NCBI GenBank assembly: GCA_964603505.1
Contig: CAZRVT010000009.1
Span: forward strand, 309 to 64,308
DNA length: 64,000 bases
From: an uncultured Holophagales bacterium
GTDB taxonomy: Bacteria; Acidobacteriota; Thermoanaerobaculia; UBA2201
Direction of reading: 5' to 3'
This document shows positions 1-64,000 of the stretch, one piece after another. The translations under genes and the position numbers were made by a program. The notes beneath the pieces are model-generated. The model was not told the origin of the DNA and ran no database searches. It saw only the letters and a list, made by a program, of their open reading frames with translations. Each line of letters begins with the position of its first letter. Positions within the stretch are counted from its first letter, which is position 1.

Positions 1-694
1 GATCGTAGGCGTAGTCCGTGGTCCCTTGTCCTTGGTCCGTTGTCCTAACAAGGTGGGAGTCATAGTTCCACTCGTAGGTGGTGGTGCCGGAGAGATCGTC
101 TTTCGTGAGCATGTTGCCGGCGTTATCCCAGGTGTAGCTCGTCGTTGTCGTGCCTCGGACTTCGCTCAGTAGGCGGTTGGCATCGTCGTAGCCGTACGTG
201 GTGATGCCGTCTTTGTCGGTGAGGGTCTGCCGGTTTCCAGCGACGTCGTAGGTGAATTGCTCGAAGTTCGCCCAAGGATACGTCGCCTTGGTTAGGCGGT
301 ACGTTGAATCGTACTCGTAACTCGTGACTTGGTTGTCGCGGAGGGAGGTCATGCTGGTGCGGTTCCCCACGGCGTCCATCAAGTAGGAGTAGCCGTCAAT
401 GATGTCCCCTTGGTTGTTTTTGGTGATAAGGGACTTCAGGCGATACGCGTTGTCGTAGTCGTAGTAGGTCGTGAGGTTATTGGGATATTGCAGCGTCATC
501 CGCCGGTCCAGGGCGTTGTAGGTCCACTCGAAGGTCCCCGCCACCGGATCGGTCTGCTTGCTCAAGCGGTTCTTGGCGTCATAGATATACCGCGTCTCGC
601 CCTTCGGGCCCGGAATAATAGGGTCAGCCACCGTTTCTCTTTTTCTATTGTGCACTTGTGCCAAGAAACAGCTACCTATTTGAAGAAGCCCCAT
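1..694 (-). CDS. RHS/YD-repeat family protein fragment (partial; 3' part runs off the window start)
   Basis: Reverse-strand translation gives consecutive YD repeats: RYIYDAKNRL, YYDYDNAYRL, YEYDSTYRL, FTYDVAGNR, YGYDDANRL, YTWDNAGNM, YEWNYDSHL. It is absent from the ORF track because there is no stop in the window. Local GC (about 52-55%) is well below the window average. Start is uncertain: a possible ATG at 694, or the frame continues upstream into the neighbouring gene's end. Confidence 0.8.
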   Translation of the reverse strand, partial: MGLLQIGSCFLAQVHNRKRETVADPIIPGPKGETRYIYDAKNRLSKQTDPVAGTFEWTYNALDRRMTLQYPNNLTTYYDYDNAYRLKSLITKNNQGDIIDGYSYLMDAVGNRTSMTSLRDNQVTSYEYDSTYRLTKATYPWANFEQFTYDVAGNRQTLTDKDGITTYGYDDANRLLSEVRGTTTTSYTWDNAGNMLTKDDLSGTTTYEWNYDSHLVRTTDQGQGTTDYAYD

Positions 695-10613: not shown

Positions 10614-10685
10614 CCCTGCCCCATGGCCGGATCGGCGCAACGGCGCCGCGGCGCGTCTGCGCAGGCGTGGGGATGGGGGGGGCGG

Positions 10686-49070: not shown

Positions 49071-49453
49071 CAGAGGGCCTCCTGGGGGGGGGGTTCGTAA
49101 ACGGCGCAAGAGGTGGGGGTTTCCCACACTTCCACCCGGTGCACCGCGGGGCCGGGGGGGAGGCGCCGGGCCACCTCCGCGGCGATGTGGCGGGCCAGGT
49201 TTTCGGCCGTGCTGTTGACGGTGTCGAAGGGGGGGACCGCGGCGAGGTCGGCGTGGTCCATCGGGGCGGTCGCTTCGCGCAGGATGCGCTTGAACTCGGT
49301 GAAGTCGAGGACCATGCCCAAGGGGTCGAGGGCCGCGGCGCGCAGGAACACGCGGGCCCGGTAGTTGTGCCCGTGCACCTTCTCGCAGGGCCCCTGGTAG
49401 CCCCGGAGGCGGTGGGCGGCGGAGAACTCTATTTCCTTGCTGACGAAGTACAT
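49070..49453 (-). CDS. queD: 6-carboxy-5,6,7,8-tetrahydropterin synthase (PTPS family)
   Basis: FSAAHRL...GHNY...CxxxHGH-type PTPS motifs (EIEFSAAHRLRGYQGPCEKVHGHNY) in a 127-aa protein. Confidence 0.85.
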   Translation of the reverse strand: MYFVSKEIEFSAAHRLRGYQGPCEKVHGHNYRARVFLRAAALDPLGMVLDFTEFKRILREATAPMDHADLAAVPPFDTVNSTAENLARHIAAEVARRLPPGPAVHRVEVWETPTSCAVYEPPPQEAL

Positions 49454-50107: not shown

Positions 50108-51112
50108 ATGAAGAAGTGCGTCTGGCTCGTGGCATTCCTTTGTGCCGCGGCCCTGTTCGCCCAGAACGCCCCCAAACTGGTCCTCGAGGACGCCATCCAC
50201 GACTTCGGCGTCGTGGTGAAAGGCGATGTGGTGGAGTGGGCCTACTCCCTCAAGAACGCCGGCACGGCCGACCTGACCATCACCGATGCCCGCCCCAGCT
50301 GCGGCTGCACCGTGGCCCAGTGGGACAAGGTCATCAAGCCCGGAGAGACGGGCAAGGTCACGGCGAAGCTGGAAACCAAGGACTTCAAAGGGCCCATCAA
50401 CAAGACCATCACGATCGTCTCCAACGACCCGGAGACGCCCCAGGCCCGGCTCTTCCTCAAGGCCACCGTCAAGGCCGTGGTCGACCTGGTCCCGGACGTC
50501 AACTTCCGGTTCAACAAGTTGAAGCGCGAGTCCGGCCAAGTCAAGCGGCTCCTGGTGACCGAGGAGGACGGGTTCGAATTCAAGGTGACCAAGACCGAGG
50601 CCTCCCAACCTTGGATCAAGTTCGACGTCGCCCCCGCGCCGCAGGAGGTCCGGCAGGCCAACTACCCCAACGCGCAGTACGAGGTCACCGCCATCATCGG
50701 TCCCGAGGCCCCGGTGGGGATGGTCAACGAGTCGGGCACCCTCTACACCACCAGCCCCAAGATGCCGGCCCTGAAAGTGAAGATCATGGGGCTCGTCCGG
50801 CCCGACGTCATGGCCTCCCCCCCCCGGCTGGAGATGGGGACGGTCGAGGCGGCCCCCGACTTCTCCCGCATGCTGAAGGTGCGGGACAACACCAAGTCGG
50901 GCACCTTCGAGCTCACCGCGGTGACCTGCACGGTCCCCTTCCTGACGGTGGCGCAGGAGGTGGTGAACAAGAACGAGGAGTATAACCTCGTCGTCAAGTT
51001 CAGCACCACCCCCCCCAAGGGCGACTTCTCCGGCAAGGTGGTGGTCAAGACCAACGCTGCGGCCGAGGAGTTCAAGACCATCGAGATCCCGGTCTCCGGG
51101 ACGGTGAAATAA
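50108..51112 (+). CDS. Secreted DUF1573 domain protein (tandem Ig-like domains)
   Basis: Signal peptide MKKCVWLVAFLCAAALFA. DUF1573 signature FGVVVKGDVVEWAYSLKNAGTADLTITDARPSCGCT. AAGGAGG RBS 6 nt upstream. The N-terminal part of track ORF 49766..51112 is spurious. Confidence 0.75.
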   Translation: MKKCVWLVAFLCAAALFAQNAPKLVLEDAIHDFGVVVKGDVVEWAYSLKNAGTADLTITDARPSCGCTVAQWDKVIKPGETGKVTAKLETKDFKGPINKTITIVSNDPETPQARLFLKATVKAVVDLVPDVNFRFNKLKRESGQVKRLLVTEEDGFEFKVTKTEASQPWIKFDVAPAPQEVRQANYPNAQYEVTAIIGPEAPVGMVNESGTLYTTSPKMPALKVKIMGLVRPDVMASPPRLEMGTVEAAPDFSRMLKVRDNTKSGTFELTAVTCTVPFLTVAQEVVNKNEEYNLVVKFSTTPPKGDFSGKVVVKTNAAAEEFKTIEIPVSGTVK

Positions 51113-52554: not shown

Positions 52555-53577
<1,023 letters not shown>

Positions 53578-53618
53578 GCCGAACCGCCCGTTGCGCCGCC
53601 GTTGATCGGGAGCGAACC

Positions 53619-54410
53619 ATGCGGGTGAAACGCAGCCTCGAGTTCCATCTGCTCGCCCTGGTCCTCCTGAACCTCGTCCTCCTGACGTTCCAGAGCCAAG
53701 CGGACCTCTGGGTGCGCGGCTTCTCCGCGGTCCTGGGGCCCCCCGTCATCCTCGTCCACCGCGCCCTCGACCGCGTGGCGGAGAGGTGGGAGCGTTTGGT
53801 GTCTCTCGGTCGGGCCCAGGAGGAGAACCGCACCCTCCGGGACCGCCTCTTCTGGGCCCGCCTCGACAACGACCGCCTGCGGATGGAGAACCTCTACCTG
53901 CAGGGGTTCCGCCGCTTGGCCGAACACCCCTCCCTGGAGGCGTCGGGCGGGAGGACCGTCGCCGTGGTTCGGCGGCGCAGCGCCAGCTACTCCGCGGAGC
54001 TCCTGGTGGACGCCGGCGCCCTCCGCGGCGTGAAAGCGGGCCAGATCGCCCTCGCTCCCGAGGGGGTCGTGGGGTTGGTGGTCGGCGTGGATGCCCTCAG
54101 CGCTACGATCCGCCCGGTCGTCCACCCCGACAGCGTGGTCTCGGTGGTGGACCTGCGCACCGGGACCCATGCCGTGGCCAAGGGGGACGGCACCGGCTTC
54201 CTGGAGCTCAAGTATCTCCCCCCCTATGCCGACGTGGCGCCGGGGGATCGGTTCGTCACCGACTGCTGGGACTTCCAGTACCACCCGGGGCTCCCGCTGG
54301 GCACCGCCGTGGAGGTGGGAGCCGACGAATCGCAGCTGAGGGTGCGGCTGCGGCCCCAGGCGGACCTTTCCTCGCTCCATTGGCTGACGCTCGTGAAGGA
54401 GGCCTCGTAG
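53619..54410 (+). CDS. mreC: Rod shape-determining protein MreC
   Basis: N-terminal TM, a coiled-coil (ENRTLRDRLFWARLDNDRLRMENLYLQ), then a beta-rich C-terminal domain. Position is immediately after mreB. Confidence 0.8.
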   Translation: MRVKRSLEFHLLALVLLNLVLLTFQSQADLWVRGFSAVLGPPVILVHRALDRVAERWERLVSLGRAQEENRTLRDRLFWARLDNDRLRMENLYLQGFRRLAEHPSLEASGGRTVAVVRRRSASYSAELLVDAGALRGVKAGQIALAPEGVVGLVVGVDALSATIRPVVHPDSVVSVVDLRTGTHAVAKGDGTGFLELKYLPPYADVAPGDRFVTDCWDFQYHPGLPLGTAVEVGADESQLRVRLRPQADLSSLHWLTLVKEAS

Positions 54411-54412
54411 CC

Positions 54413-54874
54413 GTGGGCCGCGCCCTGGCGGTCGCCGTGCTCTGTCTGTTGGCCCTCCGGGTCCAGTTCGGGCTCCTGCGCGATGCCGCCGTCCTGGACC
54501 CGCTCTTCGTGGGGGCGGTCTACGCCGCCCTGGTCCTGCGCGGGGCCGGGGCCCTTTGGCTGGCCGCCGCCCTTGGACTGGCCGGCGACTGGGTGAGCGG
54601 GACCCCTCTCGGGTTCGAGGGGGCCGCCCTGACGGCCACCGCCTACCTGGCGTTCCGCGCTGCCCGGCACCTCCTGGTCTCCTCGCGGGGCCCCCTGTTC
54701 CTGCTGGCCCTCCTCCTCTTCGTCGTCCACGAGGCGCTCCGCCGCCTCCTCGACCTCGCCCTCGGCCTGGGGCTGGGCCTCCCGTTCTCTCCCCCGCTGG
54801 CCGCCTCCGCCCTCCTCTCCGCGTTGGCGGCGGCCGCCCTCGGGTTCCGCCATGAAGAAAGAACGCCTGTTTGA
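54413..54874 (+). CDS. mreD: Rod shape-determining protein MreD
   Basis: A ~153-aa polytopic membrane protein with a GTG start 2 nt after the mreC stop. Assigned mainly by its position between mreC and mrdA. Confidence 0.55.
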   Translation: MGRALAVAVLCLLALRVQFGLLRDAAVLDPLFVGAVYAALVLRGAGALWLAAALGLAGDWVSGTPLGFEGAALTATAYLAFRAARHLLVSSRGPLFLLALLLFVVHEALRRLLDLALGLGLGLPFSPPLAASALLSALAAAALGFRHEERTPV

Positions 54875-56561
54875 AACGGCGGTGGTCCTCGGTTTCGCCG
54901 TCCTCCTCCTGCGCCTCTTCTCCATCCAGGTGCGTCACGGGGCCGAGTACGAGCAGATGGCGCTGCGCAACCACTTCCGCTACATCCCCATCCCCGCTCC
55001 GCGGGGAACCATCTGGTCGGCCGACGGCACCACGCTGGCCAGCAACCACGCCTCCACCGACCTGGTGGTCTACCGGGAGGAGATGGGGGACGCCGAGGCC
55101 CTGAAGCGGCGCCTCTGCCAGCTCCTGCCTTACCGCGCGGAGGAGGTGCAGGCGCGGTGGCGGCAGATGGCCCATACCCCCGCCTATATTCCCCACCCCG
55201 TCCTGTCCGACCTCCGGGACGACGAAATCCCGATTATCGAGCTGGAAAAGGTGCGGTTCCCCGAGTTGGCGGTGGTCAAGCCCATGCGCCGCCTCTATCC
55301 CACCGCCGATCTCTTCTCGCACGCCCTCGGCTACATCGCAGAACTCTCCCCCGAGGACGAGGGGGCGGCGGGCGGGCGGGTGGGCGATTGGGTGGGCAAG
55401 GCGGGGCTGGAGCGCTCCTACAACGACCGGCTCCGAGGGGCCGACGGCCGGTGGGCCGTGGTTGTGGACAGCCGTGAACGCGAGGTGGCCCGGTACCTGG
55501 TGGCGCGGGCCCAGGACGGCAACCCGCTTTCCACCGGCCTCCGTATCGGCCTCCACCAGGTGGCCCGCGAGATGTTCGGGGAAGACAGCGGCGCGGCGGT
55601 GGTGATGGACGTCCAGACCGGGCAGGTACTCTGCTATTATTCCTCCCCCAGCTACCCGGCCGTTCCCCCTACCTCCAGCCTGGCGCAGGCGGTCTGGAAG
55701 CAGGTCTTCGCCGACCCGCGCAAGCCGATGCTGGATCGGGTCTCCCAGGGGACCTACGCCCCGGGCTCGGTCTTCAAGGTGATTCTGGCCGCGGCGGCGC
55801 TGGAGGAGGGGATCTGGGGGCCCGCACGGGGGGTCTCCTGCAACGGGGCGTTCCAGTTCGGCAACAAGGTGTTCCGGTGCTGGAACCGGGGCGGGCACGG
55901 CTGGGTGGATCTGCGCCGGGCGCTCATTGTCTCGTGCGACGTTTACTTCTACCAGCTCGGCCTTGCCCTGGGGGTGGACCGCATCCAGGCCTGGGCGCAG
56001 CGGTTCGGGATGGGGACCCGCACGGGGGTGGACCTCCCCTTCGAGAAGCCGGGGCTGGTCCCCTCCGAGGAGTGGAGCCGGCGGGTGCGGGGGGTCCCAT
56101 GGTTCCCCGGCGAGACGGTGTCGCTGGCCATCGGCCAGGGGCCGGTGCTCGTCACGGCGATGCAGGTGTGTCAGATCTATGGCGCCATCGCCAACGGCGG
56201 CGCCCTTCTGACCCCCCGGCTCGCCGCCGGGGGGGCGCCGCAGCGGCGGGCCGTCGAGGTCTCCCCCTCCACCCTGGCCTTCCTCCGCCAGGCCCTCGGC
56301 GATGTCGTGGCGGAGCCCGGAGGGACCGCCCACCGGCAGGAGCAGGACGGGCTCCCCACGATCGCGGGCAAGACCGGTACATCCCAGGTGATGTCCGAGG
56401 TGGACGGGAAACCCTACCTCAAGGAGCACGCGTGGTTCGCCGGGTTCGCCCCCCGCGGGAACCCCCGGGTGGCGTGCGCCGTGCTGGTGGAGCACGGGGG
56501 CCACGGCTCGGAGGCCGCGGCCCCGCTGGCCGCCGCGCTCATGCGGGAGGCGCTCAAATGA
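54852..56561 (+). CDS. mrdA: Penicillin-binding protein 2 (elongasome transpeptidase)
   Basis: SVFK (SxxK), SCN (SxN) and KTGTS (KTG) active-site motifs. N-terminal TM and dimerisation domain. Lies between mreD and rodA. Confidence 0.9.
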   Translation: MKKERLFETAVVLGFAVLLLRLFSIQVRHGAEYEQMALRNHFRYIPIPAPRGTIWSADGTTLASNHASTDLVVYREEMGDAEALKRRLCQLLPYRAEEVQARWRQMAHTPAYIPHPVLSDLRDDEIPIIELEKVRFPELAVVKPMRRLYPTADLFSHALGYIAELSPEDEGAAGGRVGDWVGKAGLERSYNDRLRGADGRWAVVVDSREREVARYLVARAQDGNPLSTGLRIGLHQVAREMFGEDSGAAVVMDVQTGQVLCYYSSPSYPAVPPTSSLAQAVWKQVFADPRKPMLDRVSQGTYAPGSVFKVILAAAALEEGIWGPARGVSCNGAFQFGNKVFRCWNRGGHGWVDLRRALIVSCDVYFYQLGLALGVDRIQAWAQRFGMGTRTGVDLPFEKPGLVPSEEWSRRVRGVPWFPGETVSLAIGQGPVLVTAMQVCQIYGAIANGGALLTPRLAAGGAPQRRAVEVSPSTLAFLRQALGDVVAEPGGTAHRQEQDGLPTIAGKTGTSQVMSEVDGKPYLKEHAWFAGFAPRGNPRVACAVLVEHGGHGSEAAAPLAAALMREALK

Positions 56562-56612
56562 ACCTCCGCCACTGCTGGTTCCAAGTTCAGAGAATGCCGG
56601 GACGGGGTGGAC

Positions 56613-56646
56613 AACCCGGAACCCGGAACCCGGAACCTGGAACCGG
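56613..56646. repeat. Heptamer tandem array (CCCGGAA)x3 + CCTGGAA in the mrdA-rodA spacer
   Basis: aa cccggaa cccggaa cccggaa cctggaa ccgg. Its reverse complement is the GTTCCGG-type unit seen in other intergenic arrays in this window. Confidence 0.85.
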
Positions 56647-56661
56647 CAGGGGAGGGCGGGC

Positions 56662-57756
56662 GTGAGCGCGCGCGCCACCGGCCCGGTCTTCCGCCGGCCC
56701 CTCCGGCTCCGGCACTGGGACCCTGTCTTCTCCCTGGTGCCCCTCTTCTTCACCCTGGCGGGCCTCTACCTCATCGCGGTCACCGTGCCGAGGGCCCTCC
56801 CCGCCCAGGCGGCATACGCCGCCGCCGGCGTCGCCCTCTTCCTGGCGGTCACCGTCCTGGGGCACGGCCTCTTCGTCCGGTTCTCCCGGGTCCTCTACGG
56901 ACTGTTCGTCCTCCTCCTCCTCGCGACCCTCTTTTTCGCCCCCCCCATCGCCGGGAGCCGCGCGTGGCTGGTCCTGGGGCCCCTCCACTTCCAGCCGGCG
57001 GAGTGGATGAAGCCGGTCCTGGCGCTGGCCCTGGCCGAGCTCTACATGCGCCCCCCCGCCCGCCTCTCCCGCCTCCTGGTCCTCGGGACGGTCCCCCTGG
57101 CCCTGGTGCTGGCCCAGCCCGACCTGGGGACCGCCGTCGCGCTGGGGACGGTGACGGCGGTGGCCCTCTACTTCCAGCGGTTCTCCCTCCGGATGGTGGT
57201 CACCGTGGCCGTGGCGGGCGCCGTCGTCTTCCTCGCCGCCTGGCTCTTCCTGTTCAAGCCGTACCAGAAACAGCGCATTCTCACCTTCCTGTTCCCCTCC
57301 TACGCCACCTCCCACTCGGGCTACCAGGCGAAGCAGTCGCTCATCGCCGTGGGGTCGGGGCGCCTGCTGGGGCGCGGGATGTCCCTCTCGACCCAGACCC
57401 AGCTCCGGTTCCTCCCGGCGCAACACACCGACTTCATCTTCGCCACCCTGGCCGAGCGCCGGGGCTTCCTGGGCGCGTCCATCGCCCTGGGGCTCTTCGC
57501 CCTCCTCATCCTCCGGATGACCGCGGCGGGGCGGGCCTCGCCGGAGCCCGACGCGAGGATGCTGGCCTTCATGATCGCGGGGTTCTTCTCGTTCCACGTG
57601 ATGTACAATATCGCGATGGTCGTGGCGCTCGTTCCCATCACCGGGATCCCCCTGCCCTTCCTCTCCTACGGGGGCTCGTTCCTGACGGCCTGCTGGTTCT
57701 CCGCGGGGCTCCTCCATTCGGTCTCCATCCGGCGGTACGGGCAGTATGAAAGTTGA
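56662..57756 (+). CDS. rodA: SEDS-family peptidoglycan glycosyltransferase RodA
   Basis: FtsW/RodA/SpoVE family multi-TM protein (QPAEWMKP, PDLGTA, FIFA..E.GF). Sits immediately after mrdA. Confidence 0.9.
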   Translation: MSARATGPVFRRPLRLRHWDPVFSLVPLFFTLAGLYLIAVTVPRALPAQAAYAAAGVALFLAVTVLGHGLFVRFSRVLYGLFVLLLLATLFFAPPIAGSRAWLVLGPLHFQPAEWMKPVLALALAELYMRPPARLSRLLVLGTVPLALVLAQPDLGTAVALGTVTAVALYFQRFSLRMVVTVAVAGAVVFLAAWLFLFKPYQKQRILTFLFPSYATSHSGYQAKQSLIAVGSGRLLGRGMSLSTQTQLRFLPAQHTDFIFATLAERRGFLGASIALGLFALLILRMTAAGRASPEPDARMLAFMIAGFFSFHVMYNIAMVVALVPITGIPLPFLSYGGSFLTACWFSAGLLHSVSIRRYGQYES

Positions 57757-59218
57757 CCTCGTCGTCGCCGCGCGGGGCCTCCTCGACCGGGTGGTCCTGC
57801 TGGAGGACGACCAACCCCAGGAGTTCTACCTCGAGTCGAAGGCCGAGCCCTCCCTGGTCGGGAACATCTACAAGGGGATCGTCCAGAAGGTCCTGCCCGG
57901 GATGGAGGCCGCCTTCGTGGACCTGGGGCTCCCGAAGAACGCCTTCCTCTACAAGCGCGACGTCCTCGACGAGTGGCAGGAGTACGCCGACCTGTTCGGC
58001 CCCGCGCCCGCCGCGCCGCCGCGGCGGGCCGCCATCGACGAGATCCTCCGCGAGGGGCAGACGGTCCTGGTGCGGGTGCGCCGGGGGGAGCGGGCCTCCA
58101 AGGGGGCGCGCGTCACCACCGTGGTCACCCTGGCGGGGCGCACCCTCGTCTACCTCCCCTTCAACGAGTTCTCCGGCGTCTCCCGCCGCATCGAGGGCGA
58201 CGCAGAGCGCCAGCGCCTGCGCGACGCCTTGGAGTCGCTGGGCCCTCCGCCGGCGGGGGGCTTCATCGTCCGCACCGCGGCCCAGGGGCTCCCCGCGGAG
58301 GCGCTCGCCCTCGACCGGGACGCCCTCCTGCGGCGCTGGGAGGCCATCCTGCGCCGGGCCGATGCCGTGAAGGCCCCCGCGCTGCTGGAGGAGGAGCTGC
58401 CCCTCTACCTCCGGGTCCTGCGCGACCGGATGGGGACGGAGATCCGCTCCATCACCGTGGACGACCGCGCCGCCCTCGACCGCCTGGCCGCCTTCCTGGA
58501 GGACCCGCCCCACGACCTGCGGCGCCGCCTCCGCCTCTACGAGGGGGCCGTCCCGCTCCTGGAGGACCTGGGGCTCCGGAAGGACCTGGACCGCGCCCTG
58601 GGGCGCCGGGTGTGGCTCAAGAGCGGCGGCACCCTGGTGGTGGACCAGACCGAGGCCCTGACGGCCATCGACGTCAACAGCGGCAAGTACGTGGGGAAGC
58701 GCGGGCTCAACGAAACGGCCCTCAAGATCAACCTCCAGGCGGTCAAGGAGGTGGTGCGTCAGATCCGCCTCCGCGACCTGGGGGGCATCATCGTCGTGGA
58801 CTTCATCGACATGGGCCCGGAGCGCCTGCGGCGCGAGCTGATGGAGGCGTTTCACACCGAGATGAAGCGGGACCGCTCCCGCTCCCGCGTCGAGGCGCTG
58901 TCGGCCTTCGGCCTCCTGCAGCTCACCCGCAAGCGCCTGTACGGCTCCCCCGAACAGACGGCCCTGCGGGAGTGCCCCTGCTGCGGGGGCGCCGGGCGCG
59001 TCCGGTCGGCCGCCCTGCTCGCGCAGGAGGTCTTCGACCACATCGTCCAGGTCCGGGCCTCCGCACCGGGCCGGCCGCTGGTCGTGCGGTGCCATCCCGA
59101 GGTGGTCCGGGAGCTGGAAACGGAGCCCTGGCGCGAGCGGCTGGCCGCCCTCGGGCTCGAGTGGACCGTCCAGCCCACGGAAGGAGAAGAGCGTGAACGC
59201 CACGAGATCATCGCCTGA
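57746..59218 (+). CDS. rng: Ribonuclease G (RNase E/G family)
   Basis: N-terminal S1 domain (GNIYKGIVQKVLPGMEAAFVDLG) and the DNase I-like catalytic region with LTAIDVNSG and IIVVDFIDM. Zn-link CPCCGG. Length 490 aa. Confidence 0.9.
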   Translation: MKVDLVVAARGLLDRVVLLEDDQPQEFYLESKAEPSLVGNIYKGIVQKVLPGMEAAFVDLGLPKNAFLYKRDVLDEWQEYADLFGPAPAAPPRRAAIDEILREGQTVLVRVRRGERASKGARVTTVVTLAGRTLVYLPFNEFSGVSRRIEGDAERQRLRDALESLGPPPAGGFIVRTAAQGLPAEALALDRDALLRRWEAILRRADAVKAPALLEEELPLYLRVLRDRMGTEIRSITVDDRAALDRLAAFLEDPPHDLRRRLRLYEGAVPLLEDLGLRKDLDRALGRRVWLKSGGTLVVDQTEALTAIDVNSGKYVGKRGLNETALKINLQAVKEVVRQIRLRDLGGIIVVDFIDMGPERLRRELMEAFHTEMKRDRSRSRVEALSAFGLLQLTRKRLYGSPEQTALRECPCCGGAGRVRSAALLAQEVFDHIVQVRASAPGRPLVVRCHPEVVRELETEPWRERLAALGLEWTVQPTEGEERERHEIIA

Positions 59219-60191
59219 GCCGGGGCGGCCGACGAAGGCCGAACTCTTGGAGATGCTCCGCGCCTTTGTCGGGCGGCGGGTGGTGGTGTGGGCCGACCTG
59301 GGGGTGGACCGCTACCTCTGGGGCGCCCCCAAGCGGGTCTCCCGCGAGGCCCCCGTCCTCATCCTGGGGGTCCGCCGGGAGTGGTGGGTCCCCGGGGGCG
59401 GCGCCAACGCCGTCATGAACCTCCGCGCCTTGGGGGGGGAACCCGTCCCCGTCGGCGCGGTGGGGGGGGACGAGGACGGCGCCCGCCTCCTGGAGTGCTT
59501 CCGCCGGCGGGGCATCCCCATCCGGCACATCCGGACCGTGCGGGGCTATCGGACCGTCTCCAAAACCCGCGTCCTGGCCGGCCCCGACACCGGCGTGAAG
59601 CAGCAAGTGGTCCGGTACGACCGGGAGGAACCCCTCCCCGAAGGGATGCGCATCGTCCCCGACGGGGCGCTCCGGGCCGACGCCCTCGTCGTCTCCGACT
59701 ACGGTTACCGCGCCGTCGATCCCGCCGCCCTGGGGCGGCTGCGTCCCGGCGTCCCCGTGGTGGTGGACAGCCGGTTCCGCCTTCTGGAGTTCCCCCGCGT
59801 CGCGGCGGTGACTCCCAACGAGGAGGAGGCGGCCCGGGCCGCGGGGCTGGCCATCGCCTCCGACGCCGACGCGGAAGCCGCCGGCCGCCGCATCCTCCGG
59901 GCGCTGAAGGCCGGCACCCTCCTCATGACGCGCGGCTCGCGGGGCGTCCTCCTTATGGAGCCCCGAAAGCGTCCCCACGCCATTCCCGCCCACGGCGACG
60001 GCGAGGTGGCCGACACCACCGGCGCGGGCGACACCGTCCTGGCCGCCTTCACCCTAGGGCTGGCCGCCGGGTTTTCCCCGGGCCATGCCGCGTTCCTGGC
60101 CAATATCGCCGGGGCGCTGAAGGTGCGCAAGCTGGGCACCGCGACGGTGTCGGCCGAGGAACTGCGGCGTGAGATCGACGCGTCCCTCTAA
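59193..60191 (+). CDS. hldE: D-glycero-beta-D-manno-heptose-7-phosphate kinase (HldE domain I / RfaE1, PfkB family)
   Basis: VVVWADLGVDRY, GGGANAVMN and DTTGAGDTV (PfkB signature). Collinear with the E. coli HldE N-terminal domain. An alternative start is MLRAFVG at 59253. Confidence 0.8.
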   Translation: MNATRSSPEPGRPTKAELLEMLRAFVGRRVVVWADLGVDRYLWGAPKRVSREAPVLILGVRREWWVPGGGANAVMNLRALGGEPVPVGAVGGDEDGARLLECFRRRGIPIRHIRTVRGYRTVSKTRVLAGPDTGVKQQVVRYDREEPLPEGMRIVPDGALRADALVVSDYGYRAVDPAALGRLRPGVPVVVDSRFRLLEFPRVAAVTPNEEEAARAAGLAIASDADAEAAGRRILRALKAGTLLMTRGSRGVLLMEPRKRPHAIPAHGDGEVADTTGAGDTVLAAFTLGLAAGFSPGHAAFLANIAGALKVRKLGTATVSAEELRREIDASL

Positions 60192-60651
60192 GATCCTCGC
60201 CCTTGCCGACCTCCCCGCCCTGCGCGAGCGGGCGGAGCGCGAGGGGCGGACCATCGCCTTCGCCAACGGATGTTTCGATCTCCTCCATGTGGGACATGTC
60301 CGCTACCTTGAGGCGTCCGCCCGTGAGGCCGACCTGCTCGTGGTGGCGGTCAACGACGACGACTCCGTCCGCCTCCTCAAGGGGGCCGGACGGCCGCTGA
60401 TGCCGGTGGGGGAGCGGATGGAGATCCTGGCCGCCCTCGCGTGCGTGGATTTCCTGGTGCCGTTTCCCGGTCGGCAGCCCCTGGCCGTCATAAAGGCTCT
60501 CCGTCCCCACGTCCAGTGCAAGGGCACCGATTACACCGTCGAGGCCGTTCCGGAGCGGGAGCTCGTGGAGCGCCTCGGCGGCCGCGTGGCCATCGTGGGG
60601 GACCCCAAGGACCATTCCACGACCGCCCTCTTGAAGAAGATGGGGAAGTGA
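60169..60651 (+). CDS. D-glycero-beta-D-manno-heptose-1-phosphate adenylyltransferase (HldE domain II / RfaE2)
   Basis: FANGCFDLLHVGHVRYLE is the cytidylyltransferase HxGH motif. A ~160-aa separate ORF overlapping the kinase gene's end. Confidence 0.85.
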   Translation: MRSTRPSKILALADLPALRERAEREGRTIAFANGCFDLLHVGHVRYLEASAREADLLVVAVNDDDSVRLLKGAGRPLMPVGERMEILAALACVDFLVPFPGRQPLAVIKALRPHVQCKGTDYTVEAVPERELVERLGGRVAIVGDPKDHSTTALLKKMGK

Positions 60652-60660
60652 TGCACCAGC

Positions 60661-60697
60661 CGTTCGGGGTCCGGCGTTCCGCGTTCCGCGTTCCGCG
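60661..60697. repeat. Heptamer tandem array (CGTTCCG)x3 preceded by a degenerate unit
   Basis: cgttcgg ggtccgg cgttccg cgttccg cgttccg cg, located between the hldE adenylyltransferase and the heptosyltransferase. Confidence 0.85.
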
Positions 60698-60763
60698 CAA
60701 GGGGGGGCGGGACGCTGGACCCCATGCGCCGTGCACGGTACGGCTCTTTATGGGAGGGCGGGG

Positions 60764-61684
60764 GTGAAAGTGGCCGTCCTGCGGCTTTCCGCGTTTGGGG
60801 ACGTCGTCCATGTCCTTCCGCTCTGCTTCGTCCTCAAGCGGGGCCTGCCGAACACCGAGGTCCTTCTGGCCACCGCGGAGCGTAACGCCGTCTGGACGAT
60901 GGACCTCCCCTTCCTCGACCGCGTCCTCGCCCTCCCCGCCGCGCCGGGCGCCACCGCGAAGGTTCTTCGAGCGGAGATTTTGGACGCCCTGCTTGACGCG
61001 CAGGGGCTCTATAAATCGGCCCTCGTCGCCTTCCGATCCGGCGCTTGCCTCCGCGGCGGGTTTGGGTTCGGGGCGTGCCGGGAGCCCCTAGCCGCCCTGG
61101 CCTACCACCGCCACGCCGCGCCGCCGTGTCGGGCGCACATCATCGACAAGAACCTGGCCCTGGCGGCCTTGGCGGGGGTTTCCGACCGTTCGCTGAACGG
61201 CTATTCCCTCGCGGCCGTCGCCGCCGATCCGCGGGGGACGGTGGAGTCATTCCTCCGTTCCCTCCACGGCCGCCGTCCCGCCGTCCTCCACCCCTTCTCG
61301 AGCCGGCGGGACAAGGATTTTCCCCTCGACCCGTTGAAGGCGCTGATACCCTCCCTTCGGGCGAGGGGCTGGGAACCGGTCCTCTCCTCCGGTCCCGGGC
61401 AGGAGCCGATGGCGGAGCAGGCCGCGGCGCACCTCGGTTGCCGCCGGATGCCGCCCCTCGATGTGCGGGAGACCGCCGCCCTGTTGTCCGTTGCCGCCTG
61501 CCTCGCCGCCCCCGACACCGGGTTCCTCCATCTGGCCGACGCTCTGGGGGTCCCCACCCTTTCCTGGTTTACGCGCCTCCCCGCGTGGCGCAACGGGCCG
61601 CGGTTCTCCCGGCACCTCGTCTTCGACCGGATTCCACCGGACCCCCGGACGATGGGGGAGTTCGTGGAGGCGTTGTCGGCATGA
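60764..61684 (+). CDS. Glycosyltransferase family 9 (ADP-heptose:LPS heptosyltransferase-like)
   Basis: GTG start giving VKVAVLRLSAFGDVVHVLP (typical GT9 N-terminus). GGGAGGG RBS 5 nt upstream. C-terminal APDTGFLHLADALGVPTLSWF. Confidence 0.75.
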   Translation: MKVAVLRLSAFGDVVHVLPLCFVLKRGLPNTEVLLATAERNAVWTMDLPFLDRVLALPAAPGATAKVLRAEILDALLDAQGLYKSALVAFRSGACLRGGFGFGACREPLAALAYHRHAAPPCRAHIIDKNLALAALAGVSDRSLNGYSLAAVAADPRGTVESFLRSLHGRRPAVLHPFSSRRDKDFPLDPLKALIPSLRARGWEPVLSSGPGQEPMAEQAAAHLGCRRMPPLDVRETAALLSVAACLAAPDTGFLHLADALGVPTLSWFTRLPAWRNGPRFSRHLVFDRIPPDPRTMGEFVEALSA

Positions 61685-61688
61685 CGAA

Positions 61689-61785
61689 GTTCCTGGTTCC
61701 GAGTTCCGAGTTCCGAGTTCCCCCCGCCCGGGCCGGCTTGGTAGGGTGTTTTGCCCGGAACCAGGAACCAGGAACCCGTAACCGG
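61689..61785. repeat. Inverted pair of heptamer arrays, (GTTCCGA)x3-4 and (GGAACCA)x3, flanking a 35-nt GC-rich spacer; potential long stem-loop
   Basis: Left arm gttcctg gttccga gttccga gttccga gttcc. Right arm ggaacca ggaacca ggaaccc gtaacc is its approximate reverse complement. Lies directly after the heptosyltransferase stop. Confidence 0.8.
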
Positions 61786-61799
61786 CGGGTGGTTGCGGG

Positions 61800-62486
61800 G
61801 TGATCCTTCCCCTGCTCCTCGCCGCCACTGCCGCCGCCCCCTGGGCCGGCGGGGAGCGGCTGGACTACACCCTCCACTGGATGGGGATGCGGGTGGGGAC
61901 GATGACGCTGACGGCCCGGGATGCCGGAGAGAACTGGGCGTTCTTCCTTGCCACCCAAACCGAGGGGGCGGGGGCGAAGATCTACCCGGTCGAGCAGGAG
62001 CTGGAGTCCCTCGTCCGCAAGGCCGATTTCCAGACCCTCTATTTCCGCAAATGGGAGCACAAGCCCGGAAAACCCGAGAAAGAGGGGGAGACCCTCCTGG
62101 ACCTCGAGGGCGGCTGGCTCTACTACCGCGACTTCAAACCCCTCCCCTGGCCGTGCGTGGACACCCTTTCGTTCATCCACCTCCTCCGCCTCTCCCCCGC
62201 GGTCCCCCGCGCCCCGCCCCGGGCCTACGACCGCGGCAAGTTCTACCGCCTCACCCTGCAGGACCAGGGGGAGCGGGAGATCACGGTCGCCGGGCGGCGG
62301 GTCCGGGCCCGCAAGGTGGTCCCGAAGATGGTGGAGGAGGGGGGGAAGAAGCCCCGGAAGGGGAGCATGGTCCTCTGGCTCGGCCCCGGCCCGTCCCGCC
62401 TCCCCCTGCGCATAGATTTTTCCATCCCCCTGGGGACCCTCCGGGCCGAGCTGGCCTGCGAGCCACAGGAGGCCCGGCCTAATTAG
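61800..62486 (+). CDS. Secreted hypothetical protein, DUF3108-like
   Basis: GTG start. Signal MILPLLLAATAAAPWAGG, then a beta-rich region with Trp/Tyr motifs (LDYTLHWMGMRVGTMTLTA...). The family assignment is tentative. Confidence 0.5.
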   Translation: MILPLLLAATAAAPWAGGERLDYTLHWMGMRVGTMTLTARDAGENWAFFLATQTEGAGAKIYPVEQELESLVRKADFQTLYFRKWEHKPGKPEKEGETLLDLEGGWLYYRDFKPLPWPCVDTLSFIHLLRLSPAVPRAPPRAYDRGKFYRLTLQDQGEREITVAGRRVRARKVVPKMVEEGGKKPRKGSMVLWLGPGPSRLPLRIDFSIPLGTLRAELACEPQEARPN

Positions 62487-62677
62487 CGATGGTCTGCTAT
62501 AATGAATGCTGATAGCCTCCAGGAGATATCAATTGTCGAACAATAGGCCACTGACCCCGAATCGTCTTGCGGCCCGTTTGAGTGCCAGTGGCTCGGCCCG
62601 AGGCACCAGTTCCGATGGGGTTGCGCATGGAGCCGCCTGCGGCTACAGGTGTCGAATCAGTTGAAGGGAAACGCTCG

Positions 62678-64000
62678 ATGAACTCGATAAGATCAAGAAT
62701 CCTGTTTATCAGCATCGCCATGTTGTTCACTGAGATATTCCTCATCCGCTGGATATCAACGGAAATCCGTGTTTTCGCTTATGTCAGCAACCTGGTGTTG
62801 TTGGCTTGTTTTATTGGCATCGGGGTTGGTTGCTGCTTCGCGGATCGAAAAGGGTCTTTGCTTTGGAGCTATGGCTTTATAGGCGTATTGGTTTTAGCGG
62901 TCCGATCAAAGGTCTTTGTCAAGATCACCGATTACATTGCCCATTTCTCCGATTCTGTCATTTGGCAGCAAACCAAACCGGAAGACGTCCTTTTGCCCTC
63001 CGTCCTGGGTTTCTTGCTCACGTTAATCATGTTCGGCATAATTGTGGCGGTATTCATCCCCATGGGGCAGATTCTTGGGAGTCTTTTCAATCGCAGCCAT
63101 GAAGCGATCATTGCCTATTCGGTCAACATCGTGGGGAGCATCGCGGGCACATGGCTGTTCGCCCTTGTCGCATACTTCAACGCTCCACCGTGGGTCTGGC
63201 TGGTTCTCGCATTGTTGCTGGGGGCACCGTTGATTTCATGGAGCCGCATCAATGGCTTGGTATTCGCCGGAATTGCGATATCTTCCATCACCGTCATGCT
63301 CGCGCCAACGGTCAGCCGCGTCCTCACCATATGGAGTTCCTATCAGAAATTGGAAGTATACGAAAATACTCTTCCGGGAAGTAAAACGAAAAACGGATAT
63401 GGCGTTCTGGTCAATTCTATAGGCTACATGTGGCTGATTGATCTCTCCCGTACCTTTATGGAGCAACACCTCGGGCGGTATTCACCCGGCGTCAAGGCGC
63501 TATACGAGGTGAATCAGTACGAATTGCCCTTCCTTCTTCATCCTTCGCCTTCCGAAGTGTTGATTCTCGGAGCGGGGGGGGGAATGATGTGGCGGGCGCG
63601 CTCCGGCGGCAAGTCCCTCGGATCGATGCCGTGGAGATTGATGCCGCCATTTATAGGATTGGCCGCCTCTATCATCCGGAAAGGCCGTATCAGCAGCCCA
63701 ATGTGACGGTTCACATTGAGGACGCCCGCACCTTTCTACAGCGGTGCGACCGTCGATACGACGTCATCAGTTTCGGATTGCTGGACTCGCACACACAGGG
63801 ATCAAGCTATAACAACATCCGCCTCGATCATTATGTTTACACGATCGAGGGGCTCCAGAGTGCCAAAGCCCGGCTGAAGCCGAATGGGATCCTGTGTCTG
63901 CTATTCATGGCGGAGCGCGATTGGATCACCCAGCGCCTCTACGGTATGCTGGAAGGTGTGTTTCATAAGCCACCTTTGGTCCTTAGCCTGCCGTCCACCA
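62678..64000 (+). CDS. Polytopic-membrane-domain / spermidine-synthase-like fusion protein, interrupted by a +1 frameshift at a G10 tract (possible pseudogene, phase-variable gene or homopolymer sequencing error); runs off window end
   Basis: The N-terminal ~300 aa is multi-TM. The frame then reads VLILGAGGG (a SAM glycine motif) into a stop at 63706. The +1 frame continues NDVAGALRRQVPRIDAVEIDAAIYRIGRLY...VTVHIEDARTFL...YDVISFGLLDS, which are spermidine-synthase motifs. One extra G in the G10 run would fuse the frames. GC is ~47-50%, far below the window average. Confidence 0.7.
63574..63583 (+). repeat. Homopolymeric G10 tract at the frameshift point of the spermidine-synthase-like gene
   Basis: agcgggggggggg aatgatg. 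11 G would restore a continuous ORF. Confidence 0.9.

Follow-up and report, generated by a model that had tools for sequence, protein, structure and literature searches.

Poly-G and poly-C contingency loci, whose genes are phase variable, have been described in Neisseria, Campylobacter, and Helicobacter. IS630-type insertion sequences (IS) and other genes use programmed ribosomal frameshifting or transcriptional slippage to yield one fused protein from two reading frames. Proteins in which an N-terminal polytopic membrane domain precedes a synthase-like domain are represented by the families NF002956 (PRK03612; 522 amino acids, aa) and NF037959 (fused major facilitator superfamily/spermidine synthase), and in the spermidine synthases both acidic residues of the D-x-x-D-P motif have been given roles at the substrate site. 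Here we describe a broken gene at the end of a 64,000-nucleotide (nt) stretch of DNA, hereafter the window, from an uncultured Holophagales bacterium (NCBI GenBank assembly GCA_964603505.1, contig CAZRVT010000009.1, positions 309 to 64,308 of the forward strand). The gene joins a polytopic membrane domain to a spermidine-synthase-like domain and is interrupted at a run of G residues. We concluded, with a probability of roughly 0.85, that the locus is the decaying pseudogene remnant of a recently acquired foreign gene, as opposed to a switch or an assembly error.

The gene is read in two frames (Table 1). Frame A opens with an ATG at 62678, encodes a hydrophobic polytopic N-terminal domain that matches the family signature LIRW.STE.R..AY..NLVLL.C in an alignment, and then runs out of frame to a TGA codon at 63704 to 63706; its product as called through to 63706 is a protein of 342 aa (P0001). 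The −1 frame, frame B, begins with NDVAGALRRQVPRIDAVEID..., carries NDVAGALRRQVPRIDAVEIDAAIY...VTVHIEDARTFL...YDVISFGLLDS together with IDAVEIDAAIY, and stays open to the end of the window; the initial annotation had placed the continuing motifs in the +1 frame. A hidden Markov model (HMM) of the family, built without the query sequence, matched frame A at model positions 4 to 302 (E = 5e-111) and frame B at positions 299 to 477 (E = 7e-76). Given that the match in frame A ends at GAGGG and that frame B resumes there, the change of frame falls inside the G run, within the GGG codons. The central domain (GAGGGNDVAGALR...IDAVEID...DDAR...FGLLDSHT) lies out of the frame of the N-terminal domain and becomes contiguous with it only after one G is added, whereupon both frames fuse as ...VLILGAGGGNDVAGALRRQVPRIDAVEID....

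That a single extra G would repair the gene had been recognized from the outset, but the run had been counted as G10 (63574 to 63583) and the in-frame state accordingly taken to be G11. A scripted count gave G9, ending at 63582, and the in-frame state is G10, read as GCG GGG GGG GGG and encoding A-G-G-G of the GAGGGN motif. In the remaining 1.43 kb of the gene every family-invariant residue is kept, and there is no other stop codon or frameshift. When the synonymous codons of the repaired gene were shuffled according to its own codon usage, a run of at least 10 arose in 1.3% of the shuffles; such a run is uncommon, yet it requires no selection.

A second lesion became apparent when the sequence was followed beyond the window. 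Coordinates above 64000 continue the window numbering on a JGI contig (L082) that extends the window by 690 nt and shows 0 mismatches over the 11386-nt overlap. In this extension the repaired frame is terminated at codon 490 (...KKLIPGLLSFA, then the stop), about 220 residues short of the family, and its last five codons and stop are supplied by the end of an IS element. The gene sequence at the truncation point ends ...CCCGGGCTA / ...GATTCCCGGGCTA, and directly after codon 485 (64132) there follows, at 64133 to 64158, a 26-nt terminal inverted repeat (TIR), TATTGAGCTTTGCGTAAGTAATGGAA, so that the junction reads ...CCCGGGC followed by TATTGAGC.... HMM positions 478 to 704 (HFFFLGAAFLLLEFQNISK...GSNLLGAA.GG..E, DDWPYLYLE) were absent from all six frames up to 64690, which means that the C-terminal domain is missing from the 558 nt downstream of the truncation. 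Although the initial annotation had reckoned with a fixed tract and a downstream region degraded by further stops, the degradation that we found is of another kind: in substance it is there, brought about by the IS630 insertion at codon 485 and not by stops.

The inserted element encodes the C-terminal part of a transposase (PF13358, DDE_3, E = 2e-14; positions 201 to 291 of 299 of NF033545, E = 5e-17). We defined its end by comparison with an intact, 80%-identical relative of 1472 nt (L092), which bears a 26-nt TIR (TATTGAGCTTTGCGTAAGTAATAGAA) at both ends and is flanked by TA. In this relative (1 to 1472) the transposase is divided between two open reading frames (ORFs), a helix-turn-helix (HTH) ORF of 167 aa and a DDE_3 ORF of 169 aa, which lie 10 nt apart. 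Homologues of the transposase ORF measure 169 aa, and a 99%-identical copy (P0245) is found on another contig. Most database copies of this IS630-type element lie on contigs of 0.6 to 1.5 kb, as is typical of multi-copy IS. The fragment beside our gene shares with the IS630 family the DDE_3 transposase (NF033545), the 26-nt TIR, and the TA flanks, but it differs from the intact element in that the HTH ORF and the first ~30 DDE codons are replaced by a second element. The sequence from 64580 is probably the end of this second mobile element, which cuts the IS630 fragment. It starts with GTGTAAAAATGTACCAAAAATGATCATGAAAAGTGTACCACC... and runs to the end of the contig; over its 111 nt, the repeated TGTACCA motifs and the ORF start MITMEVF may point to an IS21-family end. 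The assemblies break in this same nest. A contig from the Logan assemblies ends within the IS fragment, at 64161 and only 3 nt beyond the TIR, which would be expected of a multi-copy repeat, and L082 ends in the second element. The low-GC segment that carries the gene had no match among plasmids (blastn), and neither blastn nor tblastx found a second IS copy or a shared repeat in the rest of the window.

Table 1. Features of the locus. Coordinates are those of the window; values above 64000 continue its numbering on contig L082.
Feature	Coordinates	Strand	Basis or remark
Host DUF3108 gene, last gene syntenic with the sister genome	61800..62486	+	PF11306, E=5e-18
Left junction of the low-GC, putatively foreign segment, with its upstream spacer	62465..62677	+	Homology to the sister genome ends at 62464
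Pseudogene, 5' part (frame A): N-terminal polytopic membrane domain and start of PF01564-like domain, to VLILGAGGG	62678..63582	+	Family HMM
G9 homopolymer, 1-nt deletion relative to in-frame G10	63574..63582	+	Scripted run count
Out-of-frame read-through tail of frame A, MMWRARSGG...SSPM	63583..63706	+	Without similarity to the family
Pseudogene, 3' part (frame B): rest of PF01564-like domain	63583..64000, on to 64132	+	Family HMM
IS630-family fragment, 447 nt, transposase on minus strand	64133..64579	-	DDE_3, NF033545, TIR
Probable end of a second mobile element	64580..64690 (L082 11966..12076), contig end	n/a	Starts GTGTAAAAATGTACCAAAAATGATCATGAAAAGTGTACCACC...; TGTACCA repeats; ORF start MITMEVF

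We then asked how firmly the length of the G tract is established. The same G9 was present in four assemblies, drawn from at least three data sets: the split gene, with identical products, was found on the NCBI contig (64926 nt), on a Logan contig (SRR12686701), and on two JGI contigs (65070 and 64638 nt). The Logan contig agrees with the window over 5216 nt, G9 included, and extends it by 161 nt; the JGI contig Ga0394875_0000599 likewise carries G9 and shows no difference from the window across 11386 nt. The metagenome_contigs collection contained no match to the flanks of the G tract, searched with a variable gap, or to a 24-mer from the IS630 end, and so does not hold the locus.

Other homopolymers in the window served as a control. 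It holds ten further G/C runs of 8 to 10 nt. Nine of them, including a C9 at 50817 (50817 to 50825) and a G10 at 49084 (49084 to 49093), sit in frame within long open frames of high GC3 (guanine-plus-cytosine content at third codon positions); for the tenth, a G8 at 10675, no frame could be assigned. The G10 at 49084 is the longest homopolymer of the window and is coding. It belongs to a minus-strand gene of the PTPS/QueD-like type, in which, read as C10, it encodes PPP in frame eight codons before the stop. Runs of at least 9 G/C are about four-fold rarer in the window than in dinucleotide-preserving shuffles (4 versus a mean of 15.3), and 99 of the 100 shuffles reached at least 4 such runs. 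This rarity suggests that long runs are selected against in this GC-rich genome.

The intact form of the gene could be described from its relatives. A search of 5.8 billion proteins returned hundreds of homologues, about 700 aa long and 40 to 52% identical, from Omnitrophota, Desulfobacterota, Zixibacteria, Acidobacteriota, Planctomycetota, and other phyla; the best of them are at most 52% identical and come from other phyla. Their alignment runs from an N-terminal membrane domain through the PF01564-like core and a conserved TTDDWPYLYLEKP motif to a second membrane domain, which is strongly conserved; the DDWPYLYLE motif lies between the PF01564-like domain and this C-terminal membrane domain. 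Members of the family (P0002 to P0120) are variously annotated as "spermidine synthase," "SAM-dependent methyltransferase," or "hypothetical," and a literature search found no paper on the family and no characterized member. The ~700-aa family is thus widespread across many phyla and uncharacterized.

Measured against this family, the Holophagales copy is 45 to 52% identical over residues 1 to 485 and retains the N-terminal membrane domain, all invariant residues, and the core GAGGGNDVAGALR...IDAVEID...DDAR...FGLLDSHT...YNN.RLDHYVYT. It departs from the family in being split by a 1-nt deletion and in lacking DDWPYLYLE as well as all of the C-terminal membrane domain. Of the copies examined, it alone has a long G tract at the GAGGGN codons: across 39 loci, the longest run of G at this site was 2 to 6 and never more than 6. 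A scan of GTDB representative genomes with the family alignment gave 80 relatives at up to 48% identity, of which 73 are single-frame and full length. The family is therefore normally encoded by one ORF, and the comparison with orthologues that the initial annotation had proposed points to a pseudogene in our window. In three of the 80 loci (L022, L052, and L070), the coding sequence changes frame near the C-terminal domain. Tandem paralogues occur in one locus (L075, 7809 to 12121), and a degenerate second copy in another (L069, 4735 to 6769). In two of the three genomic contexts inspected (L089 and L090, with the intact members P0045 and P0012), the family gene stands beside genes resembling those of type IV pili or type II secretion systems (T2SS), namely, a MshEN-T2SSE ATPase, T2SSF, N_methyl prepilins, and a secretin; either a YfhO-type membrane protein or a TPR protein is encoded there as well.

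The assignment of the gene as a membrane protein fused to a spermidine-synthase-like domain was borne out by its PF01564 match, its polytopic N-terminal domain, and the family HMM. The repaired protein scored 48 bits against PF01564 (Spermine_synth; gathering score, 22.9; E = 1.4e-12), and its best solved relatives were the SpeE structures of Thermus thermophilus, 1UIR and 3ANX (E = 1.8e-12). It fell short of the NCBIfam equivalog cutoffs of TIGR00417 (44 versus 249.55 bits), NF002010 (50.2 versus 260 bits), and NF002956 (33.6 versus 472 bits), and full-length family members likewise stayed under all of these cutoffs. As in SpeE (PF01564; TIGR00417, NF002010), the glycine-rich loop, the acidic residue of EID, and DDAR can be aligned; in contrast to SpeE, the domain has a membrane domain on either side, and Gly replaces the first Asp (FGLLDS). 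In the HMMER alignment to 3ANX this difference appears as IIDLTDPV against SFGLLDSH, with the first Asp becoming Gly in the family. The fused families NF002956 and NF037959 have the same order of an N-terminal polytopic membrane domain and a synthase-like domain, but their matches to our protein are weak and partial (14.7 bits for NF037959, against a cutoff of 40), and in the full-length family members scanned neither model matched past the central synthase-like domain. By sequence, then, the family is spermidine-synthase-like, and aminopropyltransferase activity is not established.

To place the gene in its genome, we compared the window with a sister genome. An RNase G gene lying 5 kb upstream has a 79%-identical orthologue in the metagenome-assembled genome (MAG) GCA_002327305.1 (L083), in which gene order is conserved with window positions 52615 to 62486 through QueA, Pro_dh, PTPS, MshEN, MreBCD, PBP2, RodA, RNase G, a PfkB-type kinase, CTP_transf_like, GT9, and DUF3108. 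After DUF3108, the sister genome continues with a MacB/FtsX ABC operon and contains no spermidine-synthase-like gene. Nucleotide homology between the two genomes extends from 61702 to 62464, ending 4 nt before the DUF3108 stop codon of the sister genome, from which we place the start of the foreign segment at ~62465; beyond 62464 the low-GC segment has no homology in the sister genome. The final 7 codons of the host DUF3108 gene (from ~62465) and its stop codon come from the foreign segment. Its tail reads ..QEARPN, whereas the sister protein terminates in ..EP, and the native stop codon has been lost in the host copy. RNase G relatives were found at 99%, at 76 to 79%, and at 58 to 59% identity, the next being at ~43% or below; among these, only MAGs of the Thermoanaerobaculia carry a taxon name. 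The host belongs to a deep, poorly sampled lineage.

Base composition changes at the same place. The GC content of the window falls from 0.70-0.76 to 0.47-0.57 beyond ~62500. By segment it is 0.685 in the host part, 0.571 in the spacer (62487 to 62677), 0.50 in the N-terminal part of the gene, and 0.555 in the C-terminal part, and GC3 is 0.64 in the gene versus about 0.8 to 0.95 in candidate host reading frames. The drop that had been set at 62678 is real, but composition and homology both break at ~62465, in the last codons of DUF3108. The foreign look of the gene held up in each comparison: horizontal acquisition is the best reading of the sequence evidence, because GC and GC3 are low, the homologues come from other phyla and are at most 52% identical, IS debris flanks the segment, and the segment is absent from the relative. 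That the segment was gained here, and not lost in the relative, would follow from the same reading. GC content is lower at the opposite end as well, 0.594 in the first kb of the window, and this end holds a gene with RHS/YD repeats (1 to 640, minus strand; PF05593, E = 1e-19, 4 repeats) that runs off the window start, so that both ends are lower in GC, one with an RHS-repeat gene and the other with mobile-element debris.

The spacer upstream of the gene had been proposed as a structured leader. A TATAAT box (62498 to 62503) and the two arms of a 7-bp inverted repeat (GCCACTG, 62548 to 62554; CAGTGGC, 62586 to 62592) are indeed present, but the leader itself found no support. A permissive Rfam scan of 62300 to 62900 (E up to 10) gave five chance-level matches, each far below the gathering score and upstream of 62469, and nothing between 62487 and 62677. 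The spacer showed no excess folding energy (z = +0.94; 168 of 200 shuffles fold as well), and a promoter scan found no sigma-70-type two-hexamer promoter in it. The TATAAT box and the inverted repeat are unremarkable, and the spacer is no more than upstream sequence belonging to the foreign gene.

Taken together, these observations suggest the following course of events. A low-GC segment would have entered a genome of ~69% GC immediately after DUF3108, with its junction at ~62465, carrying a gene of the ~700-aa family. Loss of one G from an ancestral G10 tract (GCG GGG GGG GGG, at the SAM [S-adenosylmethionine]-binding-type motif GAGGGN) would then have left G9, and translation would end at 63706 after a nonsense tail of 40 residues. 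The other lesion is an IS630-family element that inserted at a TA behind codon 485 and removed the conserved C-terminal ~220 residues; this element was later cut by the second mobile element, where the assemblies break. The two lesions are independent. Under this reading the locus should yield no functional enzyme, and its inactivation is probably recent, because the remaining 1.43 kb is free of further stops and frameshifts and has retained all invariant residues.

The initial annotation had left three explanations side by side: a genuine pseudogene, a homopolymer sequencing error, and a phase-variation switch. Recurrence of G9 in four assemblies together with the IS630 insertion favors the pseudogene, which is genuine and apparently fixed and lies at the IS-rich end of a contig. 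If the tract were in truth G10, the gene would be in frame at this point, and homopolymers are a classic site of error at which one G here gives a perfect fusion. Yet G9 is the same across pipelines and libraries (the NCBI MAG, Logan, and two JGI metagenome assemblies), and nine other runs of similar length were assembled in frame; an assembly error is therefore unlikely, and we regard it as quite improbable also given that the IS truncation would remain regardless. We gave equally little credence to slipped-strand phase variation, in which toggling between G9 (OFF) and G10 (ON) would control an acquired envelope-modifying enzyme. The resemblance to homopolymer contingency loci lies in a coding G9, long enough to slip, in a probable envelope-associated gene that is otherwise undamaged over 1.43 kb and whose frame a 1-nt change restores; the tract is also lineage specific, appearing in only ~1% of synonymous shuffles. 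In contrast to such loci, however, its length did not vary among the four assemblies (at consensus level), none of the 39 homologue loci exceeds 6 G there, and the host is not enriched for long runs, which are depleted in the window (4 versus 15.3 expected) and in nine of ten cases lie in frame in ordinary ORFs. Furthermore, owing to the IS insertion, even the ON state would lack the conserved C-terminal ~220 residues. Slightly less probable still is a working G9/G10 switch on a newly gained envelope-modifying enzyme of this deep-branching, high-GC lineage, with the IS confined to part of the population, so that some cells make the full 700-aa protein. Were this true, the enzyme may modify a surface structure, as the type IV pilus/T2SS-like neighbors in two of three contexts would allow, and on/off switching would be meaningful.

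A chimeric contig, with a low-GC end from another organism misassembled onto a high-GC genome, would account for the sharp GC step near the contig end, next to repeated elements, and for closest homologues from other phyla. We consider it less probable again, since the identical junction recurs in separate assemblies from different pipelines and libraries, the junction is free of IS elements, which occupy the opposite end of the segment, the DUF3108 ORF continues smoothly across, and no repeat is common to the junction and the rest of the window. Least probable of all is recoding, by which a programmed −1 ribosomal frameshift or transcriptional slippage would yield the fused protein from G9. 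The downstream frame is indeed −1, and the G run could be slippery for tRNA-Gly or RNA polymerase, but homologues do not share the two-frame layout (73 of 80 loci use a single frame, and the site holds only 2 to 6 G in 39 loci), and the product would still be truncated. The 98 nt after the tract (63583 to 63680) fold at −41.6 kcal/mol (z = −1.46), and 17 of 200 shuffles fold equally well, which is not significant. Several points nevertheless weigh against a decaying pseudogene. The evidence is at consensus level, and minority tract lengths or IS-free alleles may exist in the population. The assemblies come from related samples (identical over 11 kb); they differ in assembler and library but probably sample one population. 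Another contig, past the IS nest, could hold the missing 3' portion of the gene; the sequence is otherwise strikingly well preserved, with only its two lesions, which also fits a gene still used in some cells; and the sister genome is distant (71% nucleotide identity in DUF3108, 79% amino acid identity in RNase G), so that absence of the segment there could reflect loss.

The pseudogene reading makes the locus a clean example of the decay of foreign DNA, through single-base loss in a homopolymer and nested IS insertions at an island edge, with little wider significance. A repairable homopolymer frameshift should not count as phase variation before the rest of the gene is checked; here the decisive evidence lay 130 nt outside the window. 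Of incidental but wider interest is the parent family itself, an abundant, multiphylum family of ~700-aa proteins that differs from genuine spermidine synthases in a residue of the substrate site. For so widespread and uncharacterized a family, the type IV pilus/T2SS-like neighborhood offers a possible functional lead.

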